A program made the position numbers and the translations under genes. The notes below the pieces were generated by a model, which saw only the letters and a program-made list of their open reading frames with translations, did no database searches and had not been told where the DNA came from. From positions 675-64,674 of the forward strand of contig JAFGSB010000126.1 of assembly GCA_016934825.1 (NCBI GenBank): 64,000 bases of DNA, read 5' to 3'. This DNA is from Candidatus Zhuqueibacterota bacterium (GTDB lineage Bacteria; Zhuqueibacterota; Zhuqueibacteria; Residuimicrobiales; Krinioviventaceae). This document shows positions 21,152 through 61,678 of this stretch, in pieces (the first letter of the stretch is position 1; every line of letters starts with the position of its first letter).

Positions 21152-21152
21152 A

Positions 21153-23945: not shown

Positions 23946-23947
23946 AA

Positions 23948-25858: not shown

Positions 25859-25878
25859 ATTTACCTCATAATATAATT

Positions 25879-27663: not shown

Positions 27664-27675
27664 AACTTATATTCC

Positions 27676-29022: not shown

Positions 29023-29050
29023 CTTTCTTCCTTGAATTAAAAAACTGATT

Positions 29051-29080
29051 AAAAAAAGGGCCCAAAAAAATGCTGGGCCC
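29051..29080 (-). terminator. intrinsic terminator/attenuator between the pilin-like gene and pilC
   Basis: Minus strand reads GGGCCCA-gcattttt-TGGGCCC followed by TTTTTTT, a 7-bp GC stem plus T7 run. It sits 170 nt after the pilin stop and 28 nt before the pilC ATG. Confidence 0.6.
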
Positions 29081-29250
29081 ATGTTTACTCTAGAACATAC
29101 CGTGGTTACCTTGACGTATGGAACTTTTGTCTAAACCAGGTTCAGTTATACCTGCAATATACAAGTAAGTACAATTTGTAAAATGATACTAATCATTCAG
29201 CCCAACTTGCTTATTCAAAGACAATAATGTGTAAATTATTGGTCAATCGA

Positions 29251-43437: not shown

Positions 43438-44040
43438 ATGACAATAAATACAAACTCACAATCAAATTTTTCAGACGAAGAGCTCATCAAAAAATTTCAG
43501 GATGGTGACTTGTATGCATATGATTTAATTGTCAGACGCTACAAGGATCAATTACTAAATTTTGCATATAGATTTTTAGGCAATTTGGAAGAATCTGAAG
43601 ACGTCGTTCAGGAAACCTTTTTAAGGCTTTATAAAAACAGACACGCATACAAACAGATCGCAAAATTTTCTACGTGGATTTATACGATTGCCGGTAATCT
43701 GGCAAAAACAGAATTAAGAAAACGAAAAAGACGAAAACTTGTTTCTATATCTGAACTTGGTTTTGAAGAAAAAGAGTACGAGATTGAAGATTTAAAGGCG
43801 GACACCGAGAGACAGGCCGATTCAATTTTAAAAGAAAAGATCATAAAAAACGCAATTGAAAACCTGCCTTTCAGATTTAAACAAGTTATAATTTTAAGAG
43901 ATATTCAGGAACTTTCCTATGAGGATATTAGTTCTATTTTAAGAATTCCTCTGGGTACTGTCAAGTCCAGAGTAAATCGAGCAAGAATTAAATTACAACT
44001 AACATTAAAAGATCTAATGACTCATGAATATAAAACATAA
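43438..44040 (+). CDS. ECF-type sigma-70 family factor
   Basis: Region 2 (VQETFLRLY, FSTWIYTIAGN) and region 4 (LRDIQELSYEDISSILRIPLGTVKSRVNRAR). Confidence 0.85.
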   Translation: MTINTNSQSNFSDEELIKKFQDGDLYAYDLIVRRYKDQLLNFAYRFLGNLEESEDVVQETFLRLYKNRHAYKQIAKFSTWIYTIAGNLAKTELRKRKRRKLVSISELGFEEKEYEIEDLKADTERQADSILKEKIIKNAIENLPFRFKQVIILRDIQELSYEDISSILRIPLGTVKSRVNRARIKLQLTLKDLMTHEYKT

Positions 44041-44048
44041 TTATTGAG

Positions 44049-44699
44049 GTGCCCATGGCTAATTGCTACAAGTTTCAACAACACATAAATGATTTAATAG
44101 ATGAAAATATTGATGCGGTTAGGAAAAAAGAACTTGAAGACCATCTAAAAATTTGTTCTTCCTGTAAAGAGAATTTAGAATATTCAAAACTGATACACCG
44201 GTCTCTAAGATCATTACCCCGGTATAAAACATCCTCTTCTTTCGATATTGTTTTAAGATCCAGACTCTTGAAAGAAATAAACAAAAGTCATTCCTTTATT
44301 AATTTACCCTTTCTCCCGTCACTTAAACCCGTACCGGCATTTGCTGCGTTCACCATTATTCTCATTTTTATCGGGGTCCTTATCGGTAATTCCCTAAATA
44401 TGTTGAACAAAAAGTCCACACAAAAACTAATTGCAGTTGAGAGTGCGGGTTATACGGAGGATGAACAGACCGGGGAAACAATACAACCGGACCCGGCAAA
44501 CGTCAGGTTGAAAATGAATAATTACGTGAATGTTTTTGAACAATTTCCGGCTTCCCCAAGTAATCCTCGAGATCTGTCAAGGATTGAATATAACGGCGGC
44601 AGGATCGAAAAAGTTCAAAACGACAGTATGCTCATGTTAAGAAATAACACATCAAGCCAGCCTTTAATCAGGCAGGCAAATGCCAGTGTTCATTTCTGA
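44049..44699 (+). CDS. anti-sigma factor (zf-HC2) with one TM helix
   Basis: N-terminal H-x3-C-x2-C (HLKICSSCKE), a central TM helix (AFAAFTIILIFIGVLIG), and placement immediately after the ECF sigma gene. Confidence 0.7.
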   Translation: MPMANCYKFQQHINDLIDENIDAVRKKELEDHLKICSSCKENLEYSKLIHRSLRSLPRYKTSSSFDIVLRSRLLKEINKSHSFINLPFLPSLKPVPAFAAFTIILIFIGVLIGNSLNMLNKKSTQKLIAVESAGYTEDEQTGETIQPDPANVRLKMNNYVNVFEQFPASPSNPRDLSRIEYNGGRIEKVQNDSMLMLRNNTSSQPLIRQANASVHF

Positions 44700-44732
44700 C
44701 CTTTCTCATTCAATAACATGTGTTGGTGATTT

Positions 44733-45968
44733 ATGATGTCTAATAAAGTTTCTGTCCCTGTGCTGGTCGTATTCATTTTGGGTATTTATTTAACAGGTTT
44801 TAAAAACACTTATCCTGAAGAAATCTCTTATCTTAAAGAAATCGAAAACGAAATTGTTCAACTGGTGAACAACATCAATCCATCCATCGTTTCTATCTCC
44901 GCAAAATATGATTACACATTAATTGACGACTCTAAAGGGTCATTGCTTCAATTTAAAAGCGAAAAAAGACAACCCGTTGAAATTACCAATATCGGCTCCG
45001 GTTTTATTCTGGATTCAACCCACATTTTGACAAAATCCACAGTTATTATGGGAAGTAAAGAAATCAATGTTACTTTTTATGACAGTACAATAAAAAAAGC
45101 AACCTATGTCGGCACCGATCCTGAGCTTGGATTATCCATCATCAAAGTCGATCATATTCATCTTAAACCGTTAAAAATTGATGATTCAAAACACATAAAA
45201 CCCGGGTGCTGGGTCCTGTTAATCGGGAATTCTCTTGGTATGGCGCCATCCGTATCGCTGGGTATTATAAATTGTAAAATTGGCCGTGAAACAATGCAAA
45301 TCTCGGCAAACGTTTCCGCGGGTAACGCCGGGGGCGCGGTATTTAATACGGATGGAAATCTGGTCGGTTTATTAACAGGAATGAGTGACGATATAACTGA
45401 AAATACAATTTTAGGTAGCTCATTTTTTGCAAATCAGACAACATACGCATATCCCTCAGATGTAATTTCCGAATCCGTATCAAAAATAATCAGCCGCAGC
45501 CGGTTTCCGCAGGGCTGGATCGGCGTTACCGCCGAGGACTGGCCCGGTTATCTCGGGGGTGTTCATATTAATCATGTAACCCGCAACAGTCCGGCAGATA
45601 TAGCCGGTATTCAAATCGGCGACATTATTGTGTCCATCAATGATAAAAAAATAAATCATACAATGGAATTAGCCAATTATATAAAATATCATCATCCAGG
45701 CAGCGAAATTAAACTGGAATTATTAAGAGGAACCGGACAGCATACAATAAAAATTAATATAGGCGAACAACCAGAACCCGAGTCCGCAAGTTTTTTTACC
45801 TCCTCACCGGCGGCGACTACCCCCCCGCCCGCTCTTTTGGAATCAATCAATCTTAAACAAAAAACGGATTCTCCCGAGAATGACAACAAATTATTATTGA
45901 AAAGAATAGATAAACTTGAACGCGAACTGAAATCCATGCGGTCCATGATTAAAACAAGCAGGCAATAA
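44733..45968 (+). CDS. HtrA/DegP-like protein (trypsin fold + PDZ + coiled coil) with all three catalytic residues substituted
   Basis: GSGFILDSTHILTKSTV has Thr where TNxHV has His. DPELGLSIIKV has Gly where D-[IL]-A-[LV] has Asp. GNAGGAV (45321..45335) has Ala where GNSGG has Ser. PDZ: GVHINHVTRNSPADIAGIQIGDIIVSIN. Confidence 0.7.
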   Translation: MMSNKVSVPVLVVFILGIYLTGFKNTYPEEISYLKEIENEIVQLVNNINPSIVSISAKYDYTLIDDSKGSLLQFKSEKRQPVEITNIGSGFILDSTHILTKSTVIMGSKEINVTFYDSTIKKATYVGTDPELGLSIIKVDHIHLKPLKIDDSKHIKPGCWVLLIGNSLGMAPSVSLGIINCKIGRETMQISANVSAGNAGGAVFNTDGNLVGLLTGMSDDITENTILGSSFFANQTTYAYPSDVISESVSKIISRSRFPQGWIGVTAEDWPGYLGGVHINHVTRNSPADIAGIQIGDIIVSINDKKINHTMELANYIKYHHPGSEIKLELLRGTGQHTIKINIGEQPEPESASFFTSSPAATTPPPALLESINLKQKTDSPENDNKLLLKRIDKLERELKSMRSMIKTSRQ

Positions 45969-46718: not shown

Positions 46719-46727
46719 CAACCTTTC

Positions 46728-46802
46728 GGGGTGTAGCGCAGCCCGGTTAGCGCGCCTGCTTTGGGAGCAGGAAGTCGAGAGTTCGAATCTCTCCACCCCG
46801 AC
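46728..46802 (+). tRNA. tRNA-Pro (anticodon TGG)
   Basis: Manual cloverleaf: acceptor CGGGGTG/CACCCCG, D-arm GCGC/GCGC, anticodon arm CCTGC-TTTGGGA-GCAGG, T-arm GAGAG-TTCGAAT-CTCTC, discriminator A. No encoded CCA. Confidence 0.9.
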
Positions 46803-46805: not shown

Positions 46806-46848
46806 CAGATTAAACCTCGCAGATTTTGTAAATCTGCGAGGTTTTTTG
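46806..46848 (+). repeat. copy 1 of a 43-nt hairpin-containing repeat
   Basis: ccagattaaACCTCGCAGAttttgtaaaTCTGCGAGGTttttt. See copy 2 at 47265..47307. Confidence 0.7.
46815..46848 (+). terminator. rho-independent terminator after tRNA-Pro
   Basis: acctcgcagattt-tgt-aaatctgcgaggt (13-bp stem) followed by a T run. Confidence 0.8.
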
Positions 46849-47264: not shown

Positions 47265-47307
47265 CCAGATTAATCCTCACAGAAGTAATAAATCTGTGAG
47301 GATTTTC
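47265..47307 (+). repeat. copy 2 of the 43-nt hairpin repeat; probable terminator of the minus-strand orp-like operon
   Basis: ccagattaaTCCTCACAGAagtaataaaTCTGTGAGGAttttc. My alignment to copy 1 gives 34/43 identical. Two substitutions in the left arm are matched by compensatory ones in the right arm. Lies 16 nt downstream of the stop at 47323. Confidence 0.65.
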
Positions 47308-47322: not shown

Positions 47323-47742
47323 CTATTGCCTTCCCCGGCCCATGCCCCGGCCGGAACCTTTCCCCATACCTTTTCCTCCCCCCATCCCGAAATGGCTTTG
47401 AACATTGGGCGCTTCGGTGGGTTTTAGTTCACCGGTTTTGTATTGTTCCACAGCTTCCCGGACTGTTCCGCTGACGCCTGTAATAACCTCTATGCCTGCG
47501 GCTCCGAATGTTCGGAAGGCATTGGGGCCGCAGTTACCGGTAAGTATGACGGTTACATCTTTATCGGCCATCATCTGCGCTGACTGGATGCCCGCGCCGC
47601 CTCCTGCCGCGATGTTTGGATTTTCTACGGCTTCAAACGCCATGGTTTGCGGATCTAAAATCACGAAATAGGCGCAGCGACCGAACCGCATTTCTACCTG
47701 ATCATCCAGGGTCGGGCCGGTGGTTGATATTGCTATTTTCAT
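47323..47742 (-). CDS. NifX/NifB-C-terminal-family (ORP-like) cofactor-binding protein with Gly/Arg-rich tail
   Basis: MKIAISTTG...HFGRCAYFVILD...GGGAGIQSAQMMADKDVTVILTGNCGPNAF is typical of the dinitrogenase FeMo-cofactor-binding fold. The tail is GMGGGKGMGKGSGRGMGRGRQ. Confidence 0.75.
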   Translation of the reverse strand: MKIAISTTGPTLDDQVEMRFGRCAYFVILDPQTMAFEAVENPNIAAGGGAGIQSAQMMADKDVTVILTGNCGPNAFRTFGAAGIEVITGVSGTVREAVEQYKTGELKPTEAPNVQSHFGMGGGKGMGKGSGRGMGRGRQ

Positions 47743-47759
47743 TTCCTATACTCCTTTTA

Positions 47760-49577
47760 TTATAAATTTTTTTTTAGAATATCCCAACTTGATTTGATCG
47801 CCTCGAATGCCGGTCCCTTTCCGTATTCAATCACCGTTTTTCCCGCCATAAGGGCCTCATTGACAAAACGGTCAAACGGTATTCTGGCGACAACCTGCGA
47901 GTTGTACTCTTTAGCCATAGTCTCAATACGCAAGGCTTGTTTCTCATTCAGATCGGATTTGTTAATTATGACATATGCGGGAACTGAAAAATGGTTCGTT
48001 AACTTGAGCACCCGTTCCAGATCGTGAACCCCCGAGACCGTCGGTTCGGTAATGATCAGCACCAGGTCGGTTCCCGTAACAGAGGCTATCACCGGACAGC
48101 CCGTTCCGGGAGGGCCGTCGGCCAGTATATTTTTCAGTTTAAGATTTCGGGCCAGTTTGGCAGCATGGTTGCGCACCGTGGTGACAAGTTTACCGGAATT
48201 CTCTTCCGCAATGCCGAGACGGGCATGTACCATCGGCCCGAAATCGGTAATGGAAACATACCAGTGTCCGTTGACCACCGTTTCGCTGGAAATGGCCTGA
48301 AAAGGGCAAACAAGAGGACACAATCCGCACCCCTCACAGGAAAATTCATCGATCCGATAGGTCTTGTCGTAACTGCTGTTGGCCTGTCCATCGAAGCGGA
48401 TTGCGTTGAAATGACAGGCCTCCGCGCACAAACCGCAGGCAGTGCATTTTTCCGCATCGATCTTTGCGGACATTCCGCCGGAAAACTCGTGACTCTCACG
48501 AATCGTCGGTCGTAACAGCAGATGCAGGTCCGCGGCATCGACGTCATTATCCGCAAGCACTTTGGATTCCGCCAACTGTGCAAAGGCGGCCGTGACTGTT
48601 GTTTTTCCGGTACCGCCCTTTCCGCTGATGACGGTGATCTCCCTGAAACCGGCGGCATCTCCCGAGGGAAAAGGCTGTACCGACTTTTTATTTACCGGGA
48701 AGACCTTTTCAACAGGAACGGGTGGAACATTCGTCCCCTGCAAACTGCGGATACGTTCATAAATCGTGAGCATATTGTTGTTGAATTCGGAATAGACTGC
48801 AGCCAGAATGTCACCGTTGGAATAAATTTCGGCGTACTCACGCTTGAAGGGGATCCGTCCTATAACGGGGATACCTACCTGATTAGCATACTCGGCAATA
48901 ATGTCATCTTTTCCGTCGGATCGGTTAATCAGGATACCCGTCGGCACCCCCAGTTTCAGCGTTAATCCGACAGCCAGTTTTAGATCGTTCAGTCCGAACG
49001 GCGTCGGTTCAGTGACCAGAACAGCCACATCGGCCCCTTCAGTGGCCTCGACAACCGGACAGGCCGTTCCGGGAGACGCATCGATGATATTAACTACCTC
49101 AGGATCGATATAGGATTTGACGGACCGCACCACATTGGGGGCCAGCGCCTCGCCAATATTCAACAATCCGTGCGCAAAGAAAAATGGCCCCTTATCGGCA
49201 GATTGTATTTCCCCTATCGGTTGTGGTTTCTCCGATAAGGCATTCTCGGGACATACGTATGAGCAGACGCCACAGGAATGGCACAGTTCATCGAATATCA
49301 GTACTTTGTTCCGGACAACCGCAATGGCATTATATTTACAGGCATCCGCGCATTTGCCGCATGCCGTACACTTTGCCTCGTTCAAGACCGGTTTCATTGC
49401 GGTTACAGGCGTTGTCTCCGTGAATTCGGGTTTTACAAAAAGATAATCATTCGGCTCCTCTACATCACAGTCGAGCAGCCTGGCCCGTATTCCTTGATTA
49501 GAGAGCGCATAAGCCAGATTTACAGCAAAAGTCGTTTTTCCCGTCCCGCCTTTACCGCTTGCAATAGTAATAATCAT
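47760..49577 (-). CDS. tandem fusion of two MinD/ParA-type P-loop ATPases, each with an inserted 2x[4Fe-4S] ferredoxin domain
   Basis: Two deviant Walker A motifs (IASGKGGTGKTT, ISGKGGTGKTT), each followed by two CxxCxxCxxxCP motifs (CTACGKCADACKY / CHSCGVCSYVCP; CTACGLCAEACHF / CEGCGLCPLVCP). Start taken at MIITIAS; the track start is 18 nt upstream. Confidence 0.8.
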   Translation of the reverse strand: MIITIASGKGGTGKTTFAVNLAYALSNQGIRARLLDCDVEEPNDYLFVKPEFTETTPVTAMKPVLNEAKCTACGKCADACKYNAIAVVRNKVLIFDELCHSCGVCSYVCPENALSEKPQPIGEIQSADKGPFFFAHGLLNIGEALAPNVVRSVKSYIDPEVVNIIDASPGTACPVVEATEGADVAVLVTEPTPFGLNDLKLAVGLTLKLGVPTGILINRSDGKDDIIAEYANQVGIPVIGRIPFKREYAEIYSNGDILAAVYSEFNNNMLTIYERIRSLQGTNVPPVPVEKVFPVNKKSVQPFPSGDAAGFREITVISGKGGTGKTTVTAAFAQLAESKVLADNDVDAADLHLLLRPTIRESHEFSGGMSAKIDAEKCTACGLCAEACHFNAIRFDGQANSSYDKTYRIDEFSCEGCGLCPLVCPFQAISSETVVNGHWYVSITDFGPMVHARLGIAEENSGKLVTTVRNHAAKLARNLKLKNILADGPPGTGCPVIASVTGTDLVLIITEPTVSGVHDLERVLKLTNHFSVPAYVIINKSDLNEKQALRIETMAKEYNSQVVARIPFDRFVNEALMAGKTVIEYGKGPAFEAIKSSWDILKKNL

Positions 49578-49612
49578 AAAAAGATCCATTCTCAATTTCG
49601 TTTAACAGTAAT

Positions 49613-49735
49613 TCAATGACGGGGACCTCTCCACGCCACGCCGGAATTCAGGCATACAAAATCAAAGCAACGGCATATATAACCGGTTTTCAGTAGTTTA
49701 GCAATTTTTTCACTTTGATATTCGTATTCCTGCAT
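49613..49735 (-). CDS. candidate 40-aa Cys-containing small ORF (not in the ORF track)
   Basis: Manual translation gives MQEYEYQSEKIAKLLKTGYICRCFDFVCLNSGVAWRGPRH*. The ATG is preceded by agaaagag at -5. It fills the 150-nt gap between the radical SAM and ATPase genes. Confidence 0.3.
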   Translation of the reverse strand: MQEYEYQSEKIAKLLKTGYICRCFDFVCLNSGVAWRGPRH

Positions 49736-49745
49736 ATTACTCTTT

Positions 49746-50678
49746 CTATTTGTTCACAGTACAATAATAAACATTATCATCTTTGCGGATTTTTCGAATT
49801 CGGTTTGTCCGAAGTAACTTGCCCACATATTTGGAGACTTCATTCAAATGCAGTCCCAGTGCTCCCGCAATCTGCTCCGATGTACATGGCCGCCGCCGAA
49901 GCATTTCCAGTAAGGTGTCTTCATTTGTCTGAAAGTCCGGTCTGCGGGTAGTCTTAAACTCCGGAATCACTTCTGCAGGAGGATCAAATAATGGGGCCAG
50001 TGAATTTAATTCCTCCCCGGTCAACGGCTTGACGAAATCATGATGTACCGGACGTACGGCCGTATTCAGGTGAATACAGTCAGGGTTAATTTGTCTGGCC
50101 AGTTGCGCAATTTTCTTAACATCATTCGGCCCCGAATTCATACCGTCGATCAAAAATACCTCCATCCACAGCCGGCCTTTGAAATTGGCCCGGAATTGTA
50201 TTAATCCTTCAACGAGCTGGTCAAATTTGAGATTCGGATGAGGATGGTTAATATTGACATAACTGGCAGTGTCCCAAACGCTCAAAGAAACTTTGACAAT
50301 ATGTGCCCGCGCTGCCGCTTCCTGAACACCGGGCTGATCCAGCAGGGTTCCATTGGTTAGCAGAACGGCCGGAATACGTGTATGTGTACGGATGAATTCG
50401 AGCACGTCGCCGAACCGTGAATGAAGGGTTGGCTCGCCGGAACCGGCCAGGGTAATATAATCCGCCTGACCGTTCGTACTTAGCCACTCATTCAACTCGT
50501 TACATACTCCATCCATTGGGACATATTCTTTACGTTCTGTTGTATGGTTGGTTGTCCTCCCCAATTGACAGAAAACACAGTCGAAGGAGCATGTTTTAAA
50601 AGGCGTCAGATCAACGCCGAGAGAAAGTCCGAATCTGCGCGAAGGTACCGGTCCGAATAGATATTTAAATTTTTTCAT
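49746..50678 (-). CDS. radical SAM protein with C-terminal winged-helix-like domain
   Basis: GPVPSRRFGLSLGVDLTPFKTCSFDCVFCQLG (CxxxCxxC), GSGEPTL. The C-terminal ~60 aa are HTH-like (CTSEQIAGALGLHLNEVSKYVGKLL). Confidence 0.8.
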   Translation of the reverse strand: MKKFKYLFGPVPSRRFGLSLGVDLTPFKTCSFDCVFCQLGRTTNHTTERKEYVPMDGVCNELNEWLSTNGQADYITLAGSGEPTLHSRFGDVLEFIRTHTRIPAVLLTNGTLLDQPGVQEAAARAHIVKVSLSVWDTASYVNINHPHPNLKFDQLVEGLIQFRANFKGRLWMEVFLIDGMNSGPNDVKKIAQLARQINPDCIHLNTAVRPVHHDFVKPLTGEELNSLAPLFDPPAEVIPEFKTTRRPDFQTNEDTLLEMLRRRPCTSEQIAGALGLHLNEVSKYVGKLLRTNRIRKIRKDDNVYYCTVNK

Positions 50679-50755
50679 AAATAATTTGGGTTTAATTGGG
50701 CCTCCGGTAAAACCGTCGGCCCATTATATGGAATCACAGTACTGTAAAATATTTT

Positions 50756-51106
50756 TTACTTTTTATCCTGTTTCGACTCTAATTCCGTGATCCGTTTGTT
50801 GATCTGTTCCAGTGTTTTTGTTATATATTCCGCCTGTTGTTGAAGTGATTCCAGTTCCTGCTGTTCTGTAATATCCATTGGGTATGGAACTGCAGCGGAA
50901 AAACCGGGTCCGTATCCGGGGTAAGGGAATCCCCGGTGTCGGCCCCTGCCGCGACGAAATCCCATGCCCATTCCACGACCGAATCCGTAACCTCGCCCCG
51001 GAAACGGATTGGCATATCCGGGAACCGAATATCCGGCGCAGTACCCCGCCGCACGACCTGTCATTGGGCCCATTCCTGCTGGACCTGTTCTGTCTCCTCC
51101 TGGCAT
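50756..51106 (-). CDS. DUF5320-like protein (Gly/Arg-rich N-terminal half, coiled-coil C-terminus)
   Basis: MPGGDRTGPAGMGPMTGRAAGYCAGY... matches my recollection of the DUF5320 N-terminal signature. FGRGMGMGFRRGRGRHRG, then EQQELESLQQQAEYITKTLEQINKRITELE. Confidence 0.65.
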   Translation of the reverse strand: MPGGDRTGPAGMGPMTGRAAGYCAGYSVPGYANPFPGRGYGFGRGMGMGFRRGRGRHRGFPYPGYGPGFSAAVPYPMDITEQQELESLQQQAEYITKTLEQINKRITELESKQDKK

Positions 51107-51134
51107 AATTTACCTCCTTATATATATGATTAAC

Positions 51135-51359
51135 TTACCTGTTTCCGCGTTGTCCGCCTCGTCGTCCCTTACCGGTATTGCCTCCCCCTTTTCGTTGCCC
51201 ATATCCGAACATTCTGCCAATACCGGACAAGAGTCGTCCCCCGAAATTTTGATTCTGATCAACCAAATTATCTGATTGTCTCCCTTCGCCGCAGGAACCC
51301 ATACCCCTGCCCGTCATTGGGCCGCGGCCCTGCGGTCCTGTTCCATCACCTTTCGGCAT
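51135..51359 (-). CDS. short DUF5320-like paralogue
   Basis: MPKGDGTGPQGRGPMTGRGMGSCGEG parallels the N-terminus of 50756..51106. The tail is GQRKGGGNTGKGRRGGQRGNR. Confidence 0.55.
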   Translation of the reverse strand: MPKGDGTGPQGRGPMTGRGMGSCGEGRQSDNLVDQNQNFGGRLLSGIGRMFGYGQRKGGGNTGKGRRGGQRGNR

Positions 51360-51392
51360 TTTTTATTCCTCTCATTTATTAAAATGTTAACC

Positions 51393-51779
51393 TTAAATGG
51401 CACAATTCCTTCCGCCTCTGAAACGTCGGTGGCGTTTTCTCCTGCATCCCGGCATCCGAAAATCGGAATTTTGTACGGTACCGTTTAGAAATGATCGGAT
51501 GACCGGATTAATATCTCCCGCCACGAAAGGAATGATGTTAATACCCATCGATTCAATAGCGGAAGCAAATGCCAAAGAGATCGCACCGCAAACCAGTACC
51601 TGAACTCCCCTTTCCGCAAGCTCTCCGGCACGGGATGAAGGTTCCTGCATTTTCAAAGTGACATGTTGCCGGTTGATTTCGATACCATTCTCGACGTCCA
51701 GGACAAGAACAACCTGCGACGAATCGAAGAGCGGCGATATACGATCTCTCCATACGGCAAAAGCAATTGTATGCGCCAT
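51393..51779 (-). CDS. NifX/NifB-C-terminal-family (ORP-like) protein with basic Cys-flanked tail
   Basis: MAHTIAFAV...ISPLFDSSQVVLVLDVENG...VQVLVCGAISLAFASAIESMGINIIPF. ATG at 51779 is preceded by AAGGAG. The track TTG start at 51809 lies inside the sigma54 promoter. The tail is PGCRRKRHRRFRGGRNCAI. Confidence 0.7.
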   Translation of the reverse strand: MAHTIAFAVWRDRISPLFDSSQVVLVLDVENGIEINRQHVTLKMQEPSSRAGELAERGVQVLVCGAISLAFASAIESMGINIIPFVAGDINPVIRSFLNGTVQNSDFRMPGCRRKRHRRFRGGRNCAI

Positions 51780-51803
51780 TGTATCTCCTTTTAATATAAT
51801 GTC

Positions 51804-51821
51804 AGGCAAGTAATATGCCAG
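51804..51821 (-). promoter_or_regulatory. sigma54 (-24/-12) promoter of the orp-like operon
   Basis: Minus strand CTGGCAT-ATTAC-TTGCCT, versus consensus TGGCAC-N5-TTGCW with correct spacing. It lies ~27 nt upstream of the ATG at 51779 and directly downstream of a sigma54 enhancer-binding-protein gene. Confidence 0.7.
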
Positions 51822-51973
51822 GAATATAAAGATCGGCGGAAAACAATCTAAATTATTGATATAAAAGGAATTAAAAGAGAAAGAATTGTCTTTTCAACTG
51901 TGGAGAATCATATATAAGAGTAGCTATAATGAGACTGTAATTGAAATGTAGGGTCGCATAGACGCAACTCTAA

Positions 51974-53353
51974 TTATTTTGCAGTTTTAGTTCGTCCGTC
52001 AATCCGGGGTAATTCGATACCGAGCTGCTTAATTTTTCGAAACAACGTGCTCTTGTGAATGCCCAGTTCACGTGCGGCGGCCAGTCGATTATATTGATTT
52101 CTTTTCAGTGCATCGATGATGGTCTGTGCTTCCACTGATTTCAGTCTGGCATTGATTATATTTTTTTTCTGCTCACTCAGATGCGGGCGCAGGTTATCGG
52201 GCAGGCAATGAGGTTCAATCTGATTTTCCTGACAGAGGATAAAAGCATGTTCGATAATGTTTTCCAATTCCCGTATATTGCCCGGATAATCATGCGACAT
52301 CAGGATATCCAGCGCTGTTGGTGAGATCCCGGATATGGATTTGTTTTTTAATTTGTTGAGTTTATTGATAAAATGATTCACCAGAATCGGAATATCATTT
52401 TTGCGATCTCTTAAGGGCGGCAGGTCAATACGAATAACATTGATACGGTAGAACAGATCCATACGGAAAGTCCCTTTTTGCACCAATGATTCCAGGTCTT
52501 TATTGGATGCCGTAATTACGCGTACATTTGTTTTGACGGGTTTGGTCCCTCCCAAAGGTGTAAAAGTACGTTCCTGCAGGACACGCAGAAGCCGGACCTG
52601 AAACGCAGCACTGACATCGCCGATTTCATCCAACAGGATCGTACCGCCTTCCGCTAAAGCAAAGTGGCCCGGTTTGTCTTTTGTTGCATTTGTGAAAGCG
52701 CCGGCTTTATAACCAAAAAGTTCCGATTCTAGCAGAGTGTCCGGCAGGGCGCCGCAATTGATTGCAATAAATGGCTTTTTTTGCCGATTACTTGAATCAT
52801 GAATGGCGCGGGCGATCAGCTCTTTGCCTGTACCGGTTTCACCCTGAATCAGAACAGTGCTGTCGCTTTCCGCAATTTTCGGCAAAAGCTGAATGATTTT
52901 TCCCATGGACTGGCTTTTACTAACAATATCCCCCATTTGATAACGTGAATCCAATTCCCTGCGTAGCTCTTCGATAAGACTCATATCTCTGAACGTTTCA
53001 ACTCCGCCGATCACTTTGCCATTTTCGTCTTTGAGCAGAGATGTGCAAACCGTAACAGGAATGCTTTTTTTTTCGCTGTTCACAATATAAGTAGCGGTAT
53101 CCACATAAGAGACACCTTGCTGCATCGTTCTGCGCAAGGCACAGTCCGTTTCACACATATTGGAACGGAAAACTTCACAACAAAACTTGCCGATTGCTTC
53201 TTTACGAGTGATACCCGTAATTTTTTCTGCGGCGCGATTAAAGGATGTAATCCGCCATTGATGATCCACCGTAAAAACGCCGTCGGAAATACTTTCCAGA
53301 ATGACCTTTGTCATATCTGTTGATAAAGGGTAATGTTGTGTTTTCCGGCTCAT
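51974..53353 (-). CDS. sigma54-dependent transcriptional activator (PAS + AAA+ + Fis-type HTH)
   Basis: PAS (ILESISDGVFTVD), Walker A GETGTGKE, the sigma54-contact loop as GAFTNA, ESELFGY, and a C-terminal HTH (AAARELGIHKSTLFRKIKQLGI). Confidence 0.9.
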   Translation of the reverse strand: MSRKTQHYPLSTDMTKVILESISDGVFTVDHQWRITSFNRAAEKITGITRKEAIGKFCCEVFRSNMCETDCALRRTMQQGVSYVDTATYIVNSEKKSIPVTVCTSLLKDENGKVIGGVETFRDMSLIEELRRELDSRYQMGDIVSKSQSMGKIIQLLPKIAESDSTVLIQGETGTGKELIARAIHDSSNRQKKPFIAINCGALPDTLLESELFGYKAGAFTNATKDKPGHFALAEGGTILLDEIGDVSAAFQVRLLRVLQERTFTPLGGTKPVKTNVRVITASNKDLESLVQKGTFRMDLFYRINVIRIDLPPLRDRKNDIPILVNHFINKLNKLKNKSISGISPTALDILMSHDYPGNIRELENIIEHAFILCQENQIEPHCLPDNLRPHLSEQKKNIINARLKSVEAQTIIDALKRNQYNRLAAARELGIHKSTLFRKIKQLGIELPRIDGRTKTAK

Positions 53354-53949: not shown

Positions 53950-55296
53950 TCATTCTATATTGGGAATACTGATCACAAACTTTAAACCATTCTTATAATT
54001 TTCAACACTTAATGAGCCGCTGTGCTTAAGAATAATTTCCTTGCATATCAACAAGCCAAAACGGTTTTCGATATCAGTTGGCAAATAACTTATCGGTTCG
54101 AAAAGTTTTAAAAATTCTTCCTTGATTAAGCCAGGGGAATGATTAAATAATGAAAGTTTTACCCTTTGCTGATCTATATTATATTCAGTAGCAAAAATAA
54201 AATTTTTAACATTTGACTTTTGAATAATAAAATTGATAATATTATACAATACCAGGTGCATCTGGGTTTTATCTATTTTTACTTTTGGAATATTGTTCTT
54301 TAAATTTGTGTCAAAAGTAATATCCAATCTGGAATATACAGTTTCCGCAAAACTGATAAACTGATTCACAAACCGATTGACATCGTACACTCTTAATTTG
54401 GTTTCTATATTTATGTTTTCAATTAATTCCTGGGACAAGCCTTTCAACTGATTTAGAATAATTGAAATATTTTTTAATCTTTCTACAACTTTATTTATAT
54501 TGTTATCCCTCAGATATTTTGTCGCCAATTCCAGATTACTGGCCGTATCCTGTAATAACGTATTTAAAGTATGGCCTATATGGGCCGACAATCTTGATTC
54601 AACAGCCAGTTTTTCAACATCGACCAGATTATCAGCGGTATTGGATAACTGCTGAAATGATTGTTCCTGGCTTTGATAAAATATGGCATTTCTAATCGCG
54701 ATCGCCGCCTGGTTGGAAAATAACTGGACCAGCTCTTTTTTAATCTCCGAATCATGAATCAGCGGCTTTGAACTATCAGCATATATTAAACCTAAAATTT
54801 CATAATTGAGAAGTATTGGACAACAAATAATACTTCTTTGTACCATTTTGGAATTCTGAAATAATTTCTCTTTGGTGATATCCTCATAAAAATAAATCGC
54901 TTTGGATTTATAAGAATTGACAAGAATACTCTTGACAATTTTAAATGAATTTTTTGGTAGGTTATTTTTGTCAGCATCACGGGCGATTTTAAATTCCAAC
55001 CGGCCGTCGTTATTTTTTAACAGCAAAAAGCCTCTTTCTGCCTGAATGACGGTAATAAGAGAATCAATTACAAACTCCAGTACATTATTCAGATGAAGGG
55101 AACTGTAAATTACCCCAAAACTGCTGATAACATTTGTTATATAATTCCAGTCGTTGGTTAATGTTTCGTGAGGTAAGATTGAAAATTCTGAAGTAAGATC
55201 GGATAGATTTTTTGTATCCTTGAATAATTTATTCAGATCTAATGAATCTTTTTGACTTTTTTCATCTTCGGAATCGTCATTGATAACTTTGTCCAT
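53950..55296 (-). CDS. GAF + histidine-kinase-like protein with degenerate ATP-binding boxes (paralogue of 61679..63103)
   Basis: GAF (AERGFLLLKNNDGRLEFKIARDADK, IYADSSKPLI) and H-box SAHIGHTLNTLL. G1 is NHSPG (versus DTGPG) and G2 is NRFGLL (versus GHGFGL). ATG at 55296 is preceded by GGAGG. Confidence 0.65.
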   Translation of the reverse strand: MDKVINDDSEDEKSQKDSLDLNKLFKDTKNLSDLTSEFSILPHETLTNDWNYITNVISSFGVIYSSLHLNNVLEFVIDSLITVIQAERGFLLLKNNDGRLEFKIARDADKNNLPKNSFKIVKSILVNSYKSKAIYFYEDITKEKLFQNSKMVQRSIICCPILLNYEILGLIYADSSKPLIHDSEIKKELVQLFSNQAAIAIRNAIFYQSQEQSFQQLSNTADNLVDVEKLAVESRLSAHIGHTLNTLLQDTASNLELATKYLRDNNINKVVERLKNISIILNQLKGLSQELIENINIETKLRVYDVNRFVNQFISFAETVYSRLDITFDTNLKNNIPKVKIDKTQMHLVLYNIINFIIQKSNVKNFIFATEYNIDQQRVKLSLFNHSPGLIKEEFLKLFEPISYLPTDIENRFGLLICKEIILKHSGSLSVENYKNGLKFVISIPNIE

Positions 55297-55413
55297 ATAC
55301 CCTTTCCTCCCCACCCAAATATCATCATTAATACACTTTTGTGTACAAGCTTGGTTTCCCCCGAAACCAAACTTATACACGACTCACACACCCGGATAAC
55401 AATTAAACAACGA

Positions 55414-56016
55414 TCAATCCTTTGAGATCAGATAAATAGAAAAATGATCGATTGGAAAAGAAACAAATTTTTTGCGTTTATCCCACTTGAATTCTTGATT
55501 GTTCGTATCAGACGATGTAATTTCTTCCCACTCTCCGGTATCGGGATTCCACCAGCTCAACACAAACGTATCATTTTCATTACCATTCAATTTATCATAT
55601 AACAATTTGTAGTTCAGATACAAATTTGCCGGTTCACTAAAGGATAAATAATCGGGCTGGAAATTAAAAATAAGTTGATCTTCCGATGTTAAAAAGACCT
55701 GAGCGCTCACTTTAGTATCTTCGCCGGTACTCATTGTTTCCGGAAAAATATAAAGAAATGCAACATTTTTCTTACCTAAAGCACCACCTTGGTAGTAACG
55801 GATCAACTTTTCATCTGACCAGCTTTTAACTATGGTAAGACCCTCAAGAGGTTCAAGATCAACATTAGGGGCTTTGCGTTTGGCAGCGATTTCATCATTG
55901 GTCTGTACTGAAAGATCCGAAGGTGCCGTCGGGCTTGGCATTCTATCGCAGCCAATATTTTGTAATCCAAAGACTACGAGTAAACCGAGTAATACGAACC
56001 ATCTTTTTGTTTTCAT
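55414..56016 (-). CDS. lipoprotein, unknown function
   Basis: 200 aa with a lipobox LQNIG|C. The rest is beta-rich with no recognisable motif. Confidence 0.5.
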   Translation of the reverse strand: MKTKRWFVLLGLLVVFGLQNIGCDRMPSPTAPSDLSVQTNDEIAAKRKAPNVDLEPLEGLTIVKSWSDEKLIRYYQGGALGKKNVAFLYIFPETMSTGEDTKVSAQVFLTSEDQLIFNFQPDYLSFSEPANLYLNYKLLYDKLNGNENDTFVLSWWNPDTGEWEEITSSDTNNQEFKWDKRKKFVSFPIDHFSIYLISKD

Positions 56017-56329
56017 TTCATCTCTCCTGCTTTTGTTAATGATTGTTAATTTATACTCCTCATTTTTTCAGTTATATTTTAGCAAATACCAGGCCATTTA
56101 CATTTATCTTTGTCATCATATAATTTTTATTACATTCATAAATAAAATAATTTATACAAACTATTAAAAAACAATAAATTAATGTCAATGATATCTGTTT
56201 CCGTTAGTGGTGCCTTTTATGGTCATTTTAAAGGTTTTATAAATAAAAAATTCAAAATTTTTGACAACAAGTGTTGCCTTAAATGGACAATTGATTACAA
56301 ATAGGGACATAGAAATAAATAACATTAAC

Positions 56330-61662: not shown

Positions 61663-61678
61663 CTTTGTTGATTTCCTT

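Follow-up and report, generated by a model that had tools for sequence, protein, structure and literature searches.

The seven genes between positions 53353 and 47323 of the window (the whole 64,000-nucleotide stretch of DNA analyzed here) very probably form an orp-type (orange-protein complex) operon under the control of an OrpR-like, sigma54-dependent activator. Our overall explanation, an operon of this type in an uncultured anaerobe with the regulation and mechanism proposed below, was assigned a probability of about 0.55. The genes encode, in this order, the activator, a first NifX-fold protein (NifX#1), two DUF5320 proteins, a radical SAM enzyme, a double MinD-type ATPase and an ORP-type NifX-fold protein (Table 1); domains were called with Pfam, and NCBIfam models were also searched. 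An initial annotation had listed two NifX-family proteins, a PAS-AAA+ activator, a sigma54 promoter, two DUF5320-like proteins and a radical SAM enzyme with a winged-helix tail, and had placed all genes collinearly on one strand; each of these elements was recovered, with every gene on the minus strand. A terminator-like hairpin begins 19 nt past the last stop codon and is followed by a U-rich stretch. The host organism resembles members of KSB1/Calditrichota. The GC3 of the operon was atypical for the window, and the operon may have been acquired horizontally.

Table 1. Positions of the genes and sites described in the text
Feature	Position	Strand	Description
OrpR-like sigma54 enhancer-binding protein	51974..53353	-	459 aa; PAS (PF13426/PF00989), AAA+ (Sigma54_activat 8e-69), HTH_8 [Pfam]
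Candidate activator-binding site (UAS)	51953..51968	-	GTTGCGTCTATGCGAC, imperfect palindrome
IHF-consensus match	51849..51861	-	TATCAATAATTTA (WATCARNNNNTTR), between UAS and promoter
Sigma54 promoter, -24/-12 elements	51806..51820	-	TGGCATattacTTGC (TGGCAT-N5-TTGC)
NifX-fold protein #1 (TM1816-like)	51393..51779	-	128 aa; Nitro_FeMo-Co (PF02579) 2e-8 [Pfam]
Short DUF5320 protein	51135..51359	-	74 aa; PF17253 1.4e-9 [Pfam]
Long DUF5320 protein	50756..51106	-	116 aa; PF17253 1.5e-29 [Pfam]
Radical SAM enzyme	49746..50678	-	310 aa; Radical_SAM [Pfam]; CX3CX2C = C30/C34/C37
ORF of 40 aa with three Cys	49735..49613	-	Between radical SAM and ATPase genes
Fused double MinD-type ATPase	47760..49589	-	609 aa; CbiA/ParA twice and four Fer4 motifs [Pfam]
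ORP-type NifX-fold protein (NifX-like #2)	47323..47742	-	139 aa; Nitro_FeMo-Co (PF02579) 1e-24 [Pfam]
Terminator-like hairpin	47272..47304	-	12-bp stem, dG -18.4 kcal/mol [ViennaRNA]

The likeness to the orp clusters of Desulfovibrio vulgaris Hildenborough (DvH) that had been suspected was supported by the best PDB relative of the last gene product, which is an ORP, by the matches of the ATPase to an ORP-linked gene pair, and by the cysteine motif of the activator. In DvH, Orp3-5 are DVU2103-2105, OrpR is DVU2106, Orp8 is DVU2108 and Orp9/MrpORP is DVU2109; the operons orp5-orp4-orp3 and orp7-orp8-orp9 are sigma54- and OrpR-dependent, and altered cell morphology is the only phenotype of the system (PMC6345978, PMC8359166). 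The locus tags DVU2103-DVU2109, with DVU2106 as activator, had been given correctly, and so had the sigma54 dependence, whereas the link to cell division is described in these papers only as putative (PMC6345978, PMC8359166). Unlike the DvH system, the operon described here does not contain MrpORP, and no MrpORP gene was found in the window.

Activator and promoter region

The PAS domain of the activator carries C58-x-E60-x6-C67-x3-C71, a spacing identical to that of C52/E54/C61/C65 in the [4Fe-4S] PAS sensor of DvH OrpR (PMC8359166). The motif C-x-[ED]-x6-C-x3-C was present in all 18 activator relatives of at least 53% identity, every one of them beside orp-type genes, and it also occurred in a Desulfovibrionaceae homologue. 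The sigma54-contact loop reads GAFTNA, GAFT[NDH]A being typical of the clade.

The promoter has one mismatch to TGGCAC-N5-TTGC. On its own, the pattern occurs in the window about as often as chance predicts (51 matches versus 41 expected, with up to two mismatches); equivalent TGGCAC/TGGCAT-N5-TTGC sites were found at the same position, ahead of the NifX#1 homologue, in five other loci (L007, L036, L057, L071 and L029). A TTG start at 51809 for NifX#1 was rejected, as it falls within the promoter; the real start is the ATG at 51779, behind AAAGGAGA. The candidate UAS precedes the predicted transcription start by about 160 nt and had no other close match within the window. Both this site and the IHF-consensus match, for which conservation comes from two sequences and pattern counts are at chance level, were kept in the closest relative, L007, as GTTGCGTATATGCGAC and TATCAACAAGTTA, respectively, and the spacer surrounding the UAS diverges. 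The IHF consensus gave 12 matches in the window, which corresponds to chance, so the evidence for this site comes from its position only. The predicted UAS-IHF-sigma54 arrangement parallels that of the DvH orp promoters (PMC3897727). The PAS domain would hold a redox-sensitive [4Fe-4S] cluster, and the activator would turn on the sigma54 promoter only at very low redox potential, acting from the UAS with IHF-type bending; the operon is probably redox-switched.

NifX-fold proteins and the fused ATPase

The best PDB matches of the ORP-type protein were D. gigas ORP (2WFB, 4.9e-21) and MTH1175 (2.2e-18). It shares 41-54% identity with proteins of ORP loci and ends in a cationic tail, GMGGGKGMGKGSGRGMGRGRQ, with a pI of 11.7. 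As far as sequence comparison goes, these data showed that the last gene is orthologous to the ORP of Desulfobacterota orp loci. For NifX#1, the best PDB matches were 1T3V/1O13, at 1e-4; its C-terminus contains an FRMPGC motif and an Arg-rich tail with a second Cys (tail pI 12), and RMPGC plus a basic tail was common to at least 15 homologues.

MinD-type ATPases with ferredoxin inserts had been proposed as separate genes; the domains were found, but a single ORF spans both. Its start is more likely the ATG at 49577 (605 aa) than that at 49589 (609 aa). Each half contains a GKGGTGKT deviant Walker A motif, an inserted 2x[4Fe-4S] ferredoxin domain with eight Cys and a PGTxCP cysteine, and in the alignment the two Walker A motifs, the 16 ferredoxin cysteines and the PGTxCP residues C177 and C498 were invariant. 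The two halves share 34% identity and are joined by a Pro-rich linker (approximately residues 283-315); an amphipathic helix (muH 0.52, 98th percentile within the protein) forms the C-terminus. The AF2 model (pLDDT 85, pTM 0.85) aligned over its full length to the tandem ATPase ArsA in Foldseek, and its halves to MinD, ApbC and Cfd1. When compared with the ATPase genes found beside ORP in Bilophila, Desulfovibrio and Desulfoferrobacter, the N half scored 181-226 bits against the first and the C half 253-272 bits against the second, versus 28-47 bits for either half against CooC-like and Mrp proteins. The match to the ORP-linked pair was collinear in about 70 loci. The comparison showed, at the level of sequence, that the two halves are orthologs of the respective genes of this pair in Desulfobacterota, fused here into one; orthology to individual DvH Orp proteins was inferred via other Desulfovibrionaceae.

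Radical SAM enzyme and DUF5320 proteins

In the AF2 model of the radical SAM enzyme (pLDDT 76), residues 248-307 form an H-H-H-beta-beta winged-helix tail that contains the invariant C265. No auxiliary-cluster cysteines were found in the homologue alignment, where the conserved Cys are those of CX3CX2C and C265 only, and no NCBIfam model scored near its cutoff. The top Foldseek matches of the model were PFL-activating enzyme, viperin, NifB and LipA (TM 0.5-0.66), and these fold matches do not point to a substrate. Homologues of 60-65% identity number more than 7900 and occur across phyla. NifX, ORP, DUF5320 or Orp-ATPase genes lie within 5 kb in 43 of 66 radical SAM loci and in 13 of the 21 loci that have 3 kb or more of sequence on each side. 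Overall, orp-type genes were present in about 63% of 66-87 loci with this radical SAM family, and about one third had no orp-type neighbor. The gene immediately upstream was most commonly DUF5320 (16/61 loci), and it was NifX#1-type in 7/61. These counts showed that radical SAM and DUF5320 genes are recurrently linked with orp-type loci. Both are missing from most canonical Desulfobacterota orp loci (present in about 5/80 and 8/80, respectively) and are therefore accessory. The fused ATPase, the one-strand layout, and the DUF5320 and radical SAM genes are widely recurring features rather than peculiarities of this locus, and genes of the Mrp, CooC-like and CooT-like kinds also recur in these neighborhoods.

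The short DUF5320 protein starts with MPxGDGTGPxGxGPMTGRGxGxC and continues into a basic Gly/Arg tail (pI 11.7). The long one, whose family comprises 4869 representative clusters at E<=1e-3, has the same N-terminal motif, a Gly/Arg/aromatic/Pro-rich region (residues 1-78) and a C-terminal coiled coil. This region contains 11 P, 9 K+R, 12 aromatic residues and 22 G (pI 10.4), and the thioferrate-binding tail of P. furiosus IssA 11 P, 7 cationic and 14 aromatic residues and 15 G (pI 10.7), a likeness in composition only (PMC5524996). Moreover, the C-terminal two-thirds of the DUF5320 domain was fused to ORP-type domains in four loci (L091, L100, L153 and L093), with both domains above Pfam thresholds.

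Proposed function and alternative explanations

We propose that the operon products form a complex that would assemble, hold or hand over an anionic inorganic metal-sulfide species, either Fe-S/thioferrate-like or Mo/W-S(-Cu) as in ORP. Both NifX folds would bind it non-covalently, while the cationic Gly/Arg tails and the DUF5320 proteins, with their Cys motif, IssA-tail-like disordered region and coiled coil, would scaffold it electrostatically; nucleic-acid binding and condensation are further activities of RGG-type regions. The ATPase, as an ArsA-like pseudo-dimer, would load or release the species with ATP and electrons via its four [4Fe-4S] clusters, a metal site at the interface may be made up of one conserved Cys from each half, and the C-terminal amphipathic helix may bring the complex to the membrane. 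For the radical SAM enzyme we propose a role in maturation, its substrate most likely being a protein partner; the gene most often found immediately upstream of it encodes DUF5320. No obvious client metalloenzyme was found in the window. Redox-gated handling of an anionic metal-sulfide cluster is the likely function; a general role in metal-sulfide handling stands at even odds, and the specific roles given to the radical SAM enzyme and DUF5320 are tentative and less probable still.

It is unlikely that the species handled are Mo/W thiometallates instead of iron-sulfur, to be stored, detoxified or delivered to Mo/W enzymes. D. gigas ORP, to which the last gene product is closest among solved structures, does hold a [S2MoS2CuS2MoS2] cluster (PMC6345978), and in L003-L005 a radical SAM/Mrp/NifX/DUF5320 cluster adjoins a Mod/Tup-type ABC transporter with a TOBE domain, a molybdopterin oxidoreductase and AOR fragments. 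However, this link was seen in one neighborhood type only, no Mo/W transporter or Mo/W enzyme lies nearby in the window, and MTH1175 and IssA-type Fe-S binders are almost as close to the ORP-type protein (2.2e-18). The best NCBIfam match of the radical SAM enzyme, the tungsten-cofactor maturase TIGR04317, was far below threshold, at 38 bits versus a cutoff of 380. We consider somewhat less probable still a MinD-like system in which a membrane-binding ATPase and the coiled-coil DUF5320 proteins would place or control division or polar structures, with redox sensing as the only task of the Fe-S and NifX parts. For DvH, the literature describes morphological defects of orpR mutants, Orp proteins 'putatively involved in cell division', a polar MrpORP, and MinD-like amphipathic helices at the C-termini of Orp3/Orp4 (PMC6345978, PMC8359166). 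The ATPase studied here likewise ends in such a helix, its closest folds in Foldseek were MinD, FleN and FlhG, and DUF5320-type tails gave weak DivIC-like and coiled-coil matches. Nevertheless, the operon contains no min, fts or par genes, and carriers and chaperones of metal clusters (NifX folds, Mrp, CooC-like and CooT-like proteins, the radical SAM enzyme) predominate in the neighborhoods. Moreover, the cluster bound by ORP is of the Mo-Cu-S type, Orp3/Orp4 receive Fe-S clusters from MrpORP in vitro (PMC6345978), and the DvH morphology phenotype may be indirect.

Accessory factors for the nitrogenase cofactor (NifB/NifX/NifH-like) or for CO-dehydrogenase nickel insertion (CooC/CooT-like) are a very improbable reading. 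In its favor, Pfam labels the NifX fold 'dinitrogenase iron-molybdenum cofactor', the pairing of a radical SAM enzyme and a NifX fold is reminiscent of NifB, which ranked fifth among the radical SAM fold matches, and some radical SAM homologues lie beside CooC-like and CooT genes (L001, L105 and L110). Yet nifHDKEN and CODH genes are absent from the window, no NifB, NifX or CooC NCBIfam match was obtained, and NifB requires cluster ligands additional to the conserved cysteines seen here. The last gene sided with ORP, and the ATPase halves with the ORP-linked ATPases (181-272 bits versus 28 bits against a CooC-like protein). Furthermore, both halves carry ferredoxin inserts, and the CooC-like and Mrp-like ATPases of the fetched loci are devoid of Fer4 domains; NifH and CooC in general are not known to have such inserts. 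An even smaller chance was given to RiPP-like maturation of a 40-aa Cys peptide encoded just downstream of the radical SAM gene. The 40-codon ORF with three Cys exists, and the modeled winged helix could serve as a peptide-recognition element, but the conservation data argue strongly against this. The ORF had no family match in Pfam or NCBIfam and no tblastn match in about 170 related loci except L006, the window's own contig; it is disrupted in L007, where TAG directly follows the ATG and about 80 nt are deleted, and an unrelated 125-aa ORF occupies its slot in L088. It was rejected as a gene. In addition, the enzyme has no SPASM/twitch cysteines.

An orp-type operon for metal-sulfide handling is the preferred explanation. 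The radical SAM enzyme and the Gly/Arg-rich proteins are regular companions of the orp machinery in many anaerobes, and the OrpR-type activator found here appears to lie outside the delta-proteobacteria, the group to which OrpR was thought to be restricted.

Gene content and genomic surroundings of the operon

Seven tightly packed genes were found on the minus strand of the window between 53353 and 47323, with intergenic gaps of 17-156 nt past the promoter in the ORF listing. The gene order, a sigma54 promoter and a hairpin beyond the last gene indicated that the unit consists of an activator gene, the promoter, six structural genes and a terminator. The initial annotation, made from the sequence alone, had proposed an orp-like sigma54 operon at this place, and the Pfam searches returned the domains that it had named. 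The PAS-AAA+ activator with its promoter (TGGCAT-N5-TTGC) and the two Gly/Arg-rich DUF5320-like proteins were recovered as described, and both NifX-family proteins (PF02579) were present, although the start of the first one, hereafter NifX-1, had to be moved. The TTG at 51809 was rejected because it lies inside the promoter, overlapping the -12 element, and the ATG at 51779 is preceded by the ribosome-binding site AAAGGAGA. The MinD-type ATPases with ferredoxin inserts also stood as far as their domains are concerned, but they are encoded by a single fused gene and not by separate genes.

Features of the operon and of its surroundings (window positions)
Feature	Position	Strand	Size	Assignment or description
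Activator	53353..51974	-	459 aa	Pfam PAS, Sigma54_activat (8e-69), AAA_lid_14, HTH_8
Sigma54-contact loop of activator	52681-52698			GAFTNA, residues 219-224
Conserved regulatory block 1	51968..51953			AGTTGCGTnTATGCGAC
IHF-consensus match (block 3)	51861..51849			TATCAATAATTTA
Sigma54 promoter	51820..51806	-		cc-TGGCAT-attac-TTGC-ct
NifX-1	51779..51393	-	128 aa	Pfam Nitro_FeMo-Co (2e-8)
Short DUF5320 protein	51359..51135	-	74 aa	Pfam (1.4e-9)
Long DUF5320 protein	51106..50756	-	116 aa	Pfam (1.5e-29)
Radical SAM enzyme	50678..49746	-	310 aa	Pfam
Cys-containing ORF, rejected as a gene	49735..49613		40 aa	
Fused ATPase (ORF)	49595..47760	-		Pfam, two CbiA/ParA P-loop domains and four 4Fe-4S motifs
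ORP-type protein (second NifX-fold protein)	47742..47323	-	139 aa	Pfam Nitro_FeMo-Co (1e-24)
Terminator-like hairpin	starts 19 nt past last stop			12-bp stem, dG -18.4 kcal/mol, then a U-rich run
Perfect hairpin after tRNA-Pro	46812..46844		15-bp stem	
tRNA-Pro(TGG)	46727..46802	+		about 520 nt beyond the operon end
GuaA	35413..36951			
Pilus/secretion-like cluster	15646-29082	-		type IV pilus/T2SS-like
ECF sigma factor region	43438-45968	+		
GAF protein region	53950-63103	-		

The possible 40-aa Cys peptide between the radical SAM and ATPase genes was discarded, both as a gene and as a RiPP precursor, since it is not conserved. It had no family match in Pfam or NCBIfam, and tblastn among about 170 related loci (related loci being denoted by L and a number) matched only L006, which is the window's own contig. 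At this site, L007, the closest relative, has the same ATG followed by TAG at codon 2 and a deletion of about 80 nt, and L088 has an unrelated, unannotated 125-aa ORF (2009-2386 of that locus), possibly PNPOx-like when read by eye. The slot is variable. In L170 and L171, a Pfam PNPOx_N gene adjoins a solo fused ATPase.

The closest matches of GuaA, encoded elsewhere in the window, carried the names Calditrichaeota (76%) and, in numerous cases, candidate division KSB1 (70-71%), indicating that the host is an FCB-group anaerobe and not a delta-proteobacterium. OrpR, the sigma54 activator of the orange protein (ORP) system, "seems to be restricted" to delta-proteobacteria (PMC8359166); the locus and its PVC/FCB relatives extend this range. 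The GC3 of the seven operon genes was 0.48, versus 0.37 in the 41 other ORFs of the window (Mann-Whitney p = 5e-5). In the contigs of relatives, the excess of the operon over its flanks was just 0-6 GC points, so the signal is partly intrinsic, and what is left of it suggests horizontal acquisition. A genomic island at the tRNA-Pro on the opposite strand was rejected: no direct repeat of the tRNA 3' end turned up at the far end, and integrase and mobility genes were absent, leaving composition as the sole argument. The hairpin after this tRNA is followed by about 470 nt of non-coding DNA with several hairpins up to the operon end; an Rfam scan of the window found tRNA only, and nothing in this spacer. 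Farther away lie a type IV pilus/T2SS-like cluster (secretin, two T2SSE ATPases and T2SSF) adjoined by a 956-aa Big_1/invasin-like protein; a region with an ECF sigma factor, a putative anti-sigma factor and an HtrA-like protease; and, on the other side of the operon, a GAF-only protein of 476 aa, an SBP_bac_5 protein, a GAF histidine kinase and, as read from the translation, a 1254-aa Ser/Thr-kinase-like protein with TPR-like repeats. The signalling genes of the two latter regions have no evident link to the operon.

Orp-type identity and regulation

The best PDB match of the protein encoded by the last gene was the D. gigas ORP (2WFB, 4.9e-21), ahead of the IssA-clade protein MTH1175 (2.2e-18) and TM1290. 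When 185,579 species genomes were scanned with the D. gigas ORP sequence, 80 loci were obtained, nearly all from Desulfobacterota; these included Bilophila wadsworthia ATCC 49260, Desulfovibrio, Desulfomicrobium, Syntrophobacteraceae and Desulfobacterales. Their ORP homologues were 41-54% identical to the ORP-type protein, and in about 70 of the 80 loci the ORP gene is followed by two ATPase genes, the first corresponding to residues 5-283 and the second to residues 315-606 of the fused ATPase. Since Desulfovibrio vulgaris Hildenborough (DvH) is not among these loci, orthology to its individual Orp proteins is indirect. The operon is very probably orp-type: it contains an ORP-type protein, the ATPase pair, and a sigma54 promoter with a cognate enhancer-binding protein (EBP). 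The initial orp-like reading was therefore essentially right, as judged from four independent tests, on the ORP match, the ATPase synteny, the orthology of the ATPase halves and the Cys motif of the activator.

The DvH cluster shares with the window an ORP-type protein, paralogous MinD-type ATPases with a 2x[4Fe-4S] insert and an amphipathic helix, a sigma54 promoter with upstream activator and IHF-type sites (candidate sites in the window), a second protein of NifX fold (Orp5 in DvH, with NifX-1 as its putative counterpart), a cognate PAS-AAA+-HTH activator, and an anaerobe context. It differs in having two ATPases, which in the window are fused through a Pro-rich linker, and in having MrpORP (Orp9), which the window operon lacks; the latter carries in addition two DUF5320 genes, a radical SAM gene and a cationic tail on the ORP-type protein, and its host lies outside Desulfobacterota. 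The DvH system and its ORP complex were reportedly studied by Fievet et al. in 2011, 2014 and 2021 and by Pardoux et al. in 2019. The DvH locus tags given in the initial annotation (DVU2103-DVU2109, with DVU2106 as activator) agree with the literature, where Orp3, Orp4 and Orp5 are DVU2103, DVU2104 and DVU2105, OrpR is DVU2106, the ORP homologue Orp8 is DVU2108 and Orp9/MrpORP is DVU2109 (PMC6345978, PMC8359166). According to the same sources, the DvH genes form two divergent operons, orp5-orp4-orp3 and orp7-orp8-orp9, unlike the single collinear operon of the window, and are only "putatively" linked to cell division. No Mrp-type gene encoding an MrpORP (a Mrp/NBP35-NifX fusion) was found in the operon or the rest of the window, and matches to NCBIfam NF041136 were partial (24-89 bits versus a cutoff of 450); the gene may lie in another part of the genome. 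A DUF134 gene stands immediately before ORP in Bilophila, and the window has no DUF134 gene. In B. wadsworthia ATCC 49260 (L063, 7539-8348), DUF134 and ORP (Nitro_FeMo-Co) share one frame with no intervening stop, which is either a real fusion or two genes merged by the ORF lister, and two ferredoxin-insert ATPases and another NifX-like gene come after it. Some relatives, e.g., L168, have a DUF134 gene in place of the activator.

The sigma54 promoter, with one mismatch to the consensus, is located directly upstream of the first structural gene; the site is kept in five related loci, L007, L036, L057, L071 and L029, where it precedes the NifX-1 homologue. Alignment of the regulatory region with that of L007 gave 85% identity overall, with conservation concentrated in five blocks. 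The first is an imperfect palindrome (GTYGCRTA/TAYGCRAC) and the only close match to this pattern within the window, the second is ATTACAGTCTCAnTnTAGCTACTCT, the third is an exact IHF-consensus match whose L007 counterpart is TATCAACAAGTTA, and the fourth and fifth are the promoter and the ribosome-binding site. Counts of sigma54 and IHF patterns within the window were both at chance frequency, so the weight of these sites comes from their position and conservation only. The order of upstream activator site (UAS), IHF site and -24/-12 elements is the same as in the DvH orp promoters (PMC3897727), which are driven by sigma54, OrpR and IHF (PMC6345978, PMC3897727, PMC8359166), but the candidate UAS, GTTGCGTCTATGCGAC, differs from the DvH OrpR palindrome, GGGCGYRTTTTGCGCCC.

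The activator resembles OrpR in domain order, adjacency to orp genes and the sigma54 promoter downstream. Its PAS domain contains C58-x-E60-x6-C67-x3-C71, with spacing identical to that of C52/E54/C61/C65, the ligands of the redox-sensing [4Fe-4S] cluster of OrpR, an activator that loses its activity when the redox potential is raised (PMC8359166). The spacing suggests that the window activator may bind a cluster of the same redox-sensitive kind. This motif was found in all 18 activator relatives with at least 53% identity among the fetched loci, all beside orp-type genes, and was absent from the other PAS-EBPs of the same loci (39-44% identity), except for the Desulfovibrionaceae homologue in L076. 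The latter is the nearest fetched homologue from that family and only about 43% identical to the window activator, whose gene is co-directional with its target operon, unlike the OrpR arrangement. The sigma54-contact loop reads GAFTNA and not the canonical GAFTGA; throughout the OrpR-like clade the loop is typically GAFT[N/D/H]A, and most of the distant PAS-EBPs in the same loci retain GAFTGA.

The fused ATPase and the companions of the orp-type core

The two ATPase halves share 34% identity; they span approximately residues 1-283 and 315-609 (609-aa numbering from ATG 49589) and are connected by the Pro-rich linker QGTNVPPVPVEKVFPVNKKSVQPFPSGDAAGF. The ATG at 49577 (605 aa) is favoured as the start, because the database cluster representative and the alignment consensus begin four residues later, at MIITIASGKGG. 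Both halves have the deviant Walker A motif GKGGTGKT with the signature lysine, and in each the alignment showed eight invariant ferredoxin Cys and one invariant Cys in PGTxCP (C177, C498). In BLASTP comparisons with the gene pair beside ORP in Bilophila, Desulfovibrio and Desulfoferrobacter, the N half scored 181-226 bits against ATPase gene 1 and 110-129 against gene 2, and the C half 115-135 and 253-272, respectively; Mrp-like proteins gave 47 and 35 bits and CooC-like proteins 28 bits with either half. Each half thus matches its own counterpart gene best, indicating that the duplication is older than the fusion. The fused protein belongs to a large family, as the best 120 matches were all 602-677 aa long and 65-91% identical, with Krumholzibacteriaceae, Victivallales, Kiritimatiellia and Planctomycetota among the named carriers. 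At its C-terminus, a stretch of 14 residues makes up an amphipathic helix (muH 0.52, 98th percentile), and such a C-terminal helix has been reported for Orp3 and Orp4 (PMC6345978).

AlphaFold gave a confident single-chain model (pLDDT 85, pTM 0.85). With Foldseek, each half matched MinD, FleN, ApbC, Cfd1 and NifH, and the full-length protein matched ArsA over about 716 columns (TM 0.38-0.40, identity 12-14%). ArsA is the classic tandem pseudo-dimeric ATPase and has a metalloid site between its halves. Both proteins join two deviant-Walker-A ATPases by a linker in a single chain of about 600 aa, but ArsA lacks the ferredoxin inserts; the window ATPase is not a member of the ArsA/Get3 family, and ArsA is an architectural analogue. 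By this analogy, C177 and C498, one conserved Cys in each half, may contribute to a metal site at the interface.

The four small proteins, i.e., NifX-1, the ORP-type protein and both DUF5320 proteins, are all cationic and Gly/Arg-rich. NifX-1, whose nearest solved relative was TM1816 (1e-4), ends in FRMPGCRRKRHRRFRGGRNCAI, with an RMPGC motif and a basic tail that at least 15 homologues retain; the C-terminus of the ORP-type protein reads GMGGGKGMGKGSGRGMGRGRQ. A second type of NifX-1 homologue, found in L036, L057, L071, L120, L008, L021 and L080, has a Gly/Gln-rich linker and a zinc-ribbon-like end (CxCPxCG...CPxCG) replacing the RMPGC/Arg tail, and no strict correlation was evident between the tail type and the presence of the radical SAM gene. 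Both DUF5320 proteins start with the near-invariant motif MPxGD(G/R)TGPxGxGPMTGRxxGxC, followed in the long one by a Gly/Arg/aromatic/Pro region and a coiled coil, and the family comprises 4869 representative clusters at E<=1e-3. In natural fusions, an ORP-type NifX domain runs straight into a DUF5320 part that comprises the Gly/Arg region and the coiled coil; in L091, L100, L153 and L093, PF02579 and PF17253 both score above their Pfam gathering thresholds. By the Rosetta-stone argument, DUF5320 would work physically with ORP, although such gene fusions, including that of the two ATPases, support interaction only indirectly. Further ORP-DUF5320 fusions were seen in L029, L056, L057, L101, L102, L120, L123 and L159.

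The NifX-fold domain (IPR003731) followed by a cationic, Gly-rich, disordered tail is also the arrangement of P. furiosus IssA, whose storage of thioferrate was reportedly studied by Vaccaro et al. in 2017. Residues 1-78 of the long DUF5320 protein (78 aa: 22 Gly, 12 aromatic, 11 Pro, 9 cationic; pI 10.4) resemble the thioferrate-binding tail of IssA nearly number for number (70 aa: 15 Gly, 14 aromatic, 11 Pro, 7 cationic; pI 10.7, as given in PMC5524996), and this likeness is compositional. The tail of the ORP-type protein itself is short (about 25 aa) and has no aromatics, so that the IssA-like composition stands here on the separate DUF5320 proteins. The linkage to ATPases and a radical SAM gene found here is not mentioned for IssA in the accessible text of PMC5524996, which also names an uncharacterised clade of mesophilic proteins, "IssX", that have a high pI and tails rich in Gly.

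The radical SAM family is highly conserved between phyla, with more than 7900 close homologues of 60-65% identity in Desulfobacterales, Phycisphaerae and Spirochaetales. Alignment showed invariant Cys at C30/C34/C37 (CX3CX2C) and at C265 in the winged-helix tail, and at no other position. The model (pLDDT 76) has a small core and an H-H-H-beta-beta winged helix, and its closest folds in Foldseek were PFL-activating enzyme (E 6.5e-8, TM 0.54/0.66), viperin, NifB and LipA; this build would suit a protein or peptide as substrate without being diagnostic of one. NCBIfam and PDB searches gave only far sub-threshold matches to W-cofactor maturase, TYW1, viperin and MoaA. The label "wyosine synthetase"/TYW1, which JGI gives to homologues of the enzyme, is unsupported (TIGR03972 at 36.8 bits versus a cutoff of 318, over residues 71-203 only), and TYW1 carries a second cluster. 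NifB likewise couples a radical SAM domain to a NifX-like carrier, but within one protein, whereas the window has NifX followed by radical SAM as separate genes. NifB requires further Cys ligands for its K-clusters, beyond those of the SAM cluster; the window enzyme had no NifB match in NCBIfam, and no nif genes were found within the window.

Co-occurrence was counted in 80 metagenomic loci centred on this family (53-74% identity to the window enzyme). A gene of NifX-1 type, ORP type, DUF5320 or Orp-type ATPase was found within 5 kb in 43 of the 66 loci with flanks of at least 1.5 kb, and in 13 of the 21 with at least 3 kb on both sides, with NifX-1-type genes as the most frequent partner in these well-flanked loci (10/13). 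Mrp genes and activators 56-75% identical to that of the window were also frequent. The immediate upstream neighbour was DUF5320 in 16/61 and NifX-1-type in 7/61 loci, and the downstream one was an Orp-type ATPase (10/59), ORP-type (6/59) or Mrp (4/59); random positions in a genome of a few Mb were roughly estimated to yield no more than a few percent. The linkage is asymmetric, since within 8 kb of the 80 canonical ORP loci radical SAM was found in about 5 and DUF5320 in about 8. The remaining radical SAM loci have CooC-like and CooT genes (L001, L105, L110) or nothing recognisable. The full architecture recurs in L007 and L088, in the metagenomic loci L129, L151/L157 and L120 and in the genome of Ca. 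Desulfaltia (L036), with proteins 83-95% identical to those of the window in L007 (71% for the short DUF5320) and 74-86% in L088. The radical SAM and DUF5320 genes are, thus, regular companions of the orp core outside Desulfovibrio and not oddities.

Small CooT-like proteins (MCLST... N-terminus) and CooC-like ATPases near radical SAM genes were seen in L001, L002, L098, L099, L105, L110 and L122, and their recurrence, in some cases within extended orp-like clusters, may point to a broader neighbourhood of metallochaperones. In L003-L005, a radical SAM/Mrp/NifX/DUF5320 cluster is flanked on one side by a Mod/Tup-type ABC transporter with a TOBE domain and on the other by a molybdopterin oxidoreductase operon, and L004 contains AOR fragments. 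A literature search on DUF5320/PF17253, COG1149/COG1433 and newer Orp work gave nothing relevant beyond the 2011-2021 Desulfovibrio papers, and no connection of the radical SAM family or DUF5320 to orp was found in the searchable literature. On pyrite, Methanococcus voltae shows a joint rise of two IssA-clade proteins and two radical SAM proteins of different families, with locus numbers close to one another (PMC9431491); this is a loose parallel only.

Proposed working of the system and its alternatives

In the working that we propose, the activator would sense very low redox potential through its PAS [4Fe-4S] cluster and fire the sigma54 promoter. The products would then form a complex, in which the NifX folds and cationic tails or DUF5320 may hold anionic inorganic metal-sulfide species, either Fe-S/thioferrate-like or Mo/W-S(-Cu) as in ORP. 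Loading or release, perhaps at the membrane, would be driven by the ArsA-like ATPase through ATP and ferredoxin-type electron transfer, and the radical SAM enzyme would mature a partner, the prime candidates being DUF5320 and the NifX-1 tail. A more specific reading, to which we give a probability of about 0.12, joins these elements: DUF5320 and the NifX tails would constitute an IssA-like electrostatic scaffold under OrpR-type control, on which many anaerobic bacteria would store or nucleate a polymer of inorganic metal sulfide, either thioferrate-like Fe-S or a thiometallate, with the ATPase loading and unloading the scaffold. The radical SAM enzyme would act as a dedicated maturase, modifying the DUF5320 N-motif MPxGDGTGPxGxGPMTGRGxGxC or the RMPGC tail of NifX-1 and so triggering or controlling assembly.

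Other explanations were weighed against the proposed general handling of metal sulfides. Handling of Mo/W thiometallates specifically, for which the Mo-Cu-S cluster of ORP itself and the Mod/Tup and molybdoenzyme neighbours in L003-L005 speak, is unlikely. We also doubt, somewhat more strongly, that the operon encodes a MinD-like division or positioning system: this idea is based on the DvH morphology phenotype, and handling of metalloclusters is favoured over a purely cytoskeletal role because Mrp, CooC-like and CooT-like neighbours recur and MrpORP transfers Fe-S to Orp3/4 in vitro (PMC6345978).

Maturation of nitrogenase or CODH, the grouping that would have separated the locus from orp-type genes, is very improbable, since there are no nif, CODH or CooT genes within the window and the ATPase halves do not group with CooC. 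Least credible is a RiPP system using the 40-aa ORF as precursor, given that this ORF is not conserved.

What is new here is the combination of a single-strand operon, a fused ATPase, the lack of MrpORP, a tailed ORP, DUF5320 and radical SAM genes, and a non-delta-proteobacterial host. No single part is unique to the window; the gene set is widespread and already annotated, and the value lies in the comparative pattern, so that the finding overall is a comparative-genomics hypothesis and describes no new kind of system. For the ORP complex, a tightly redox-regulated set of metalloproteins specific to anaerobes, this pattern supplies testable partners: the natural fusions (ATPase1-ATPase2 and ORP-DUF5320) predict physical contacts, and the radical SAM reaction, its candidate substrates and a simplified single-chain ATPase offer experimental handles. 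The pattern also links ORP to the IssA concept of electrostatic metal-sulfide storage and, if the joint scaffold reading were true, the long-enigmatic ORP complex would gain a concrete job and a new radical SAM reaction would be defined.
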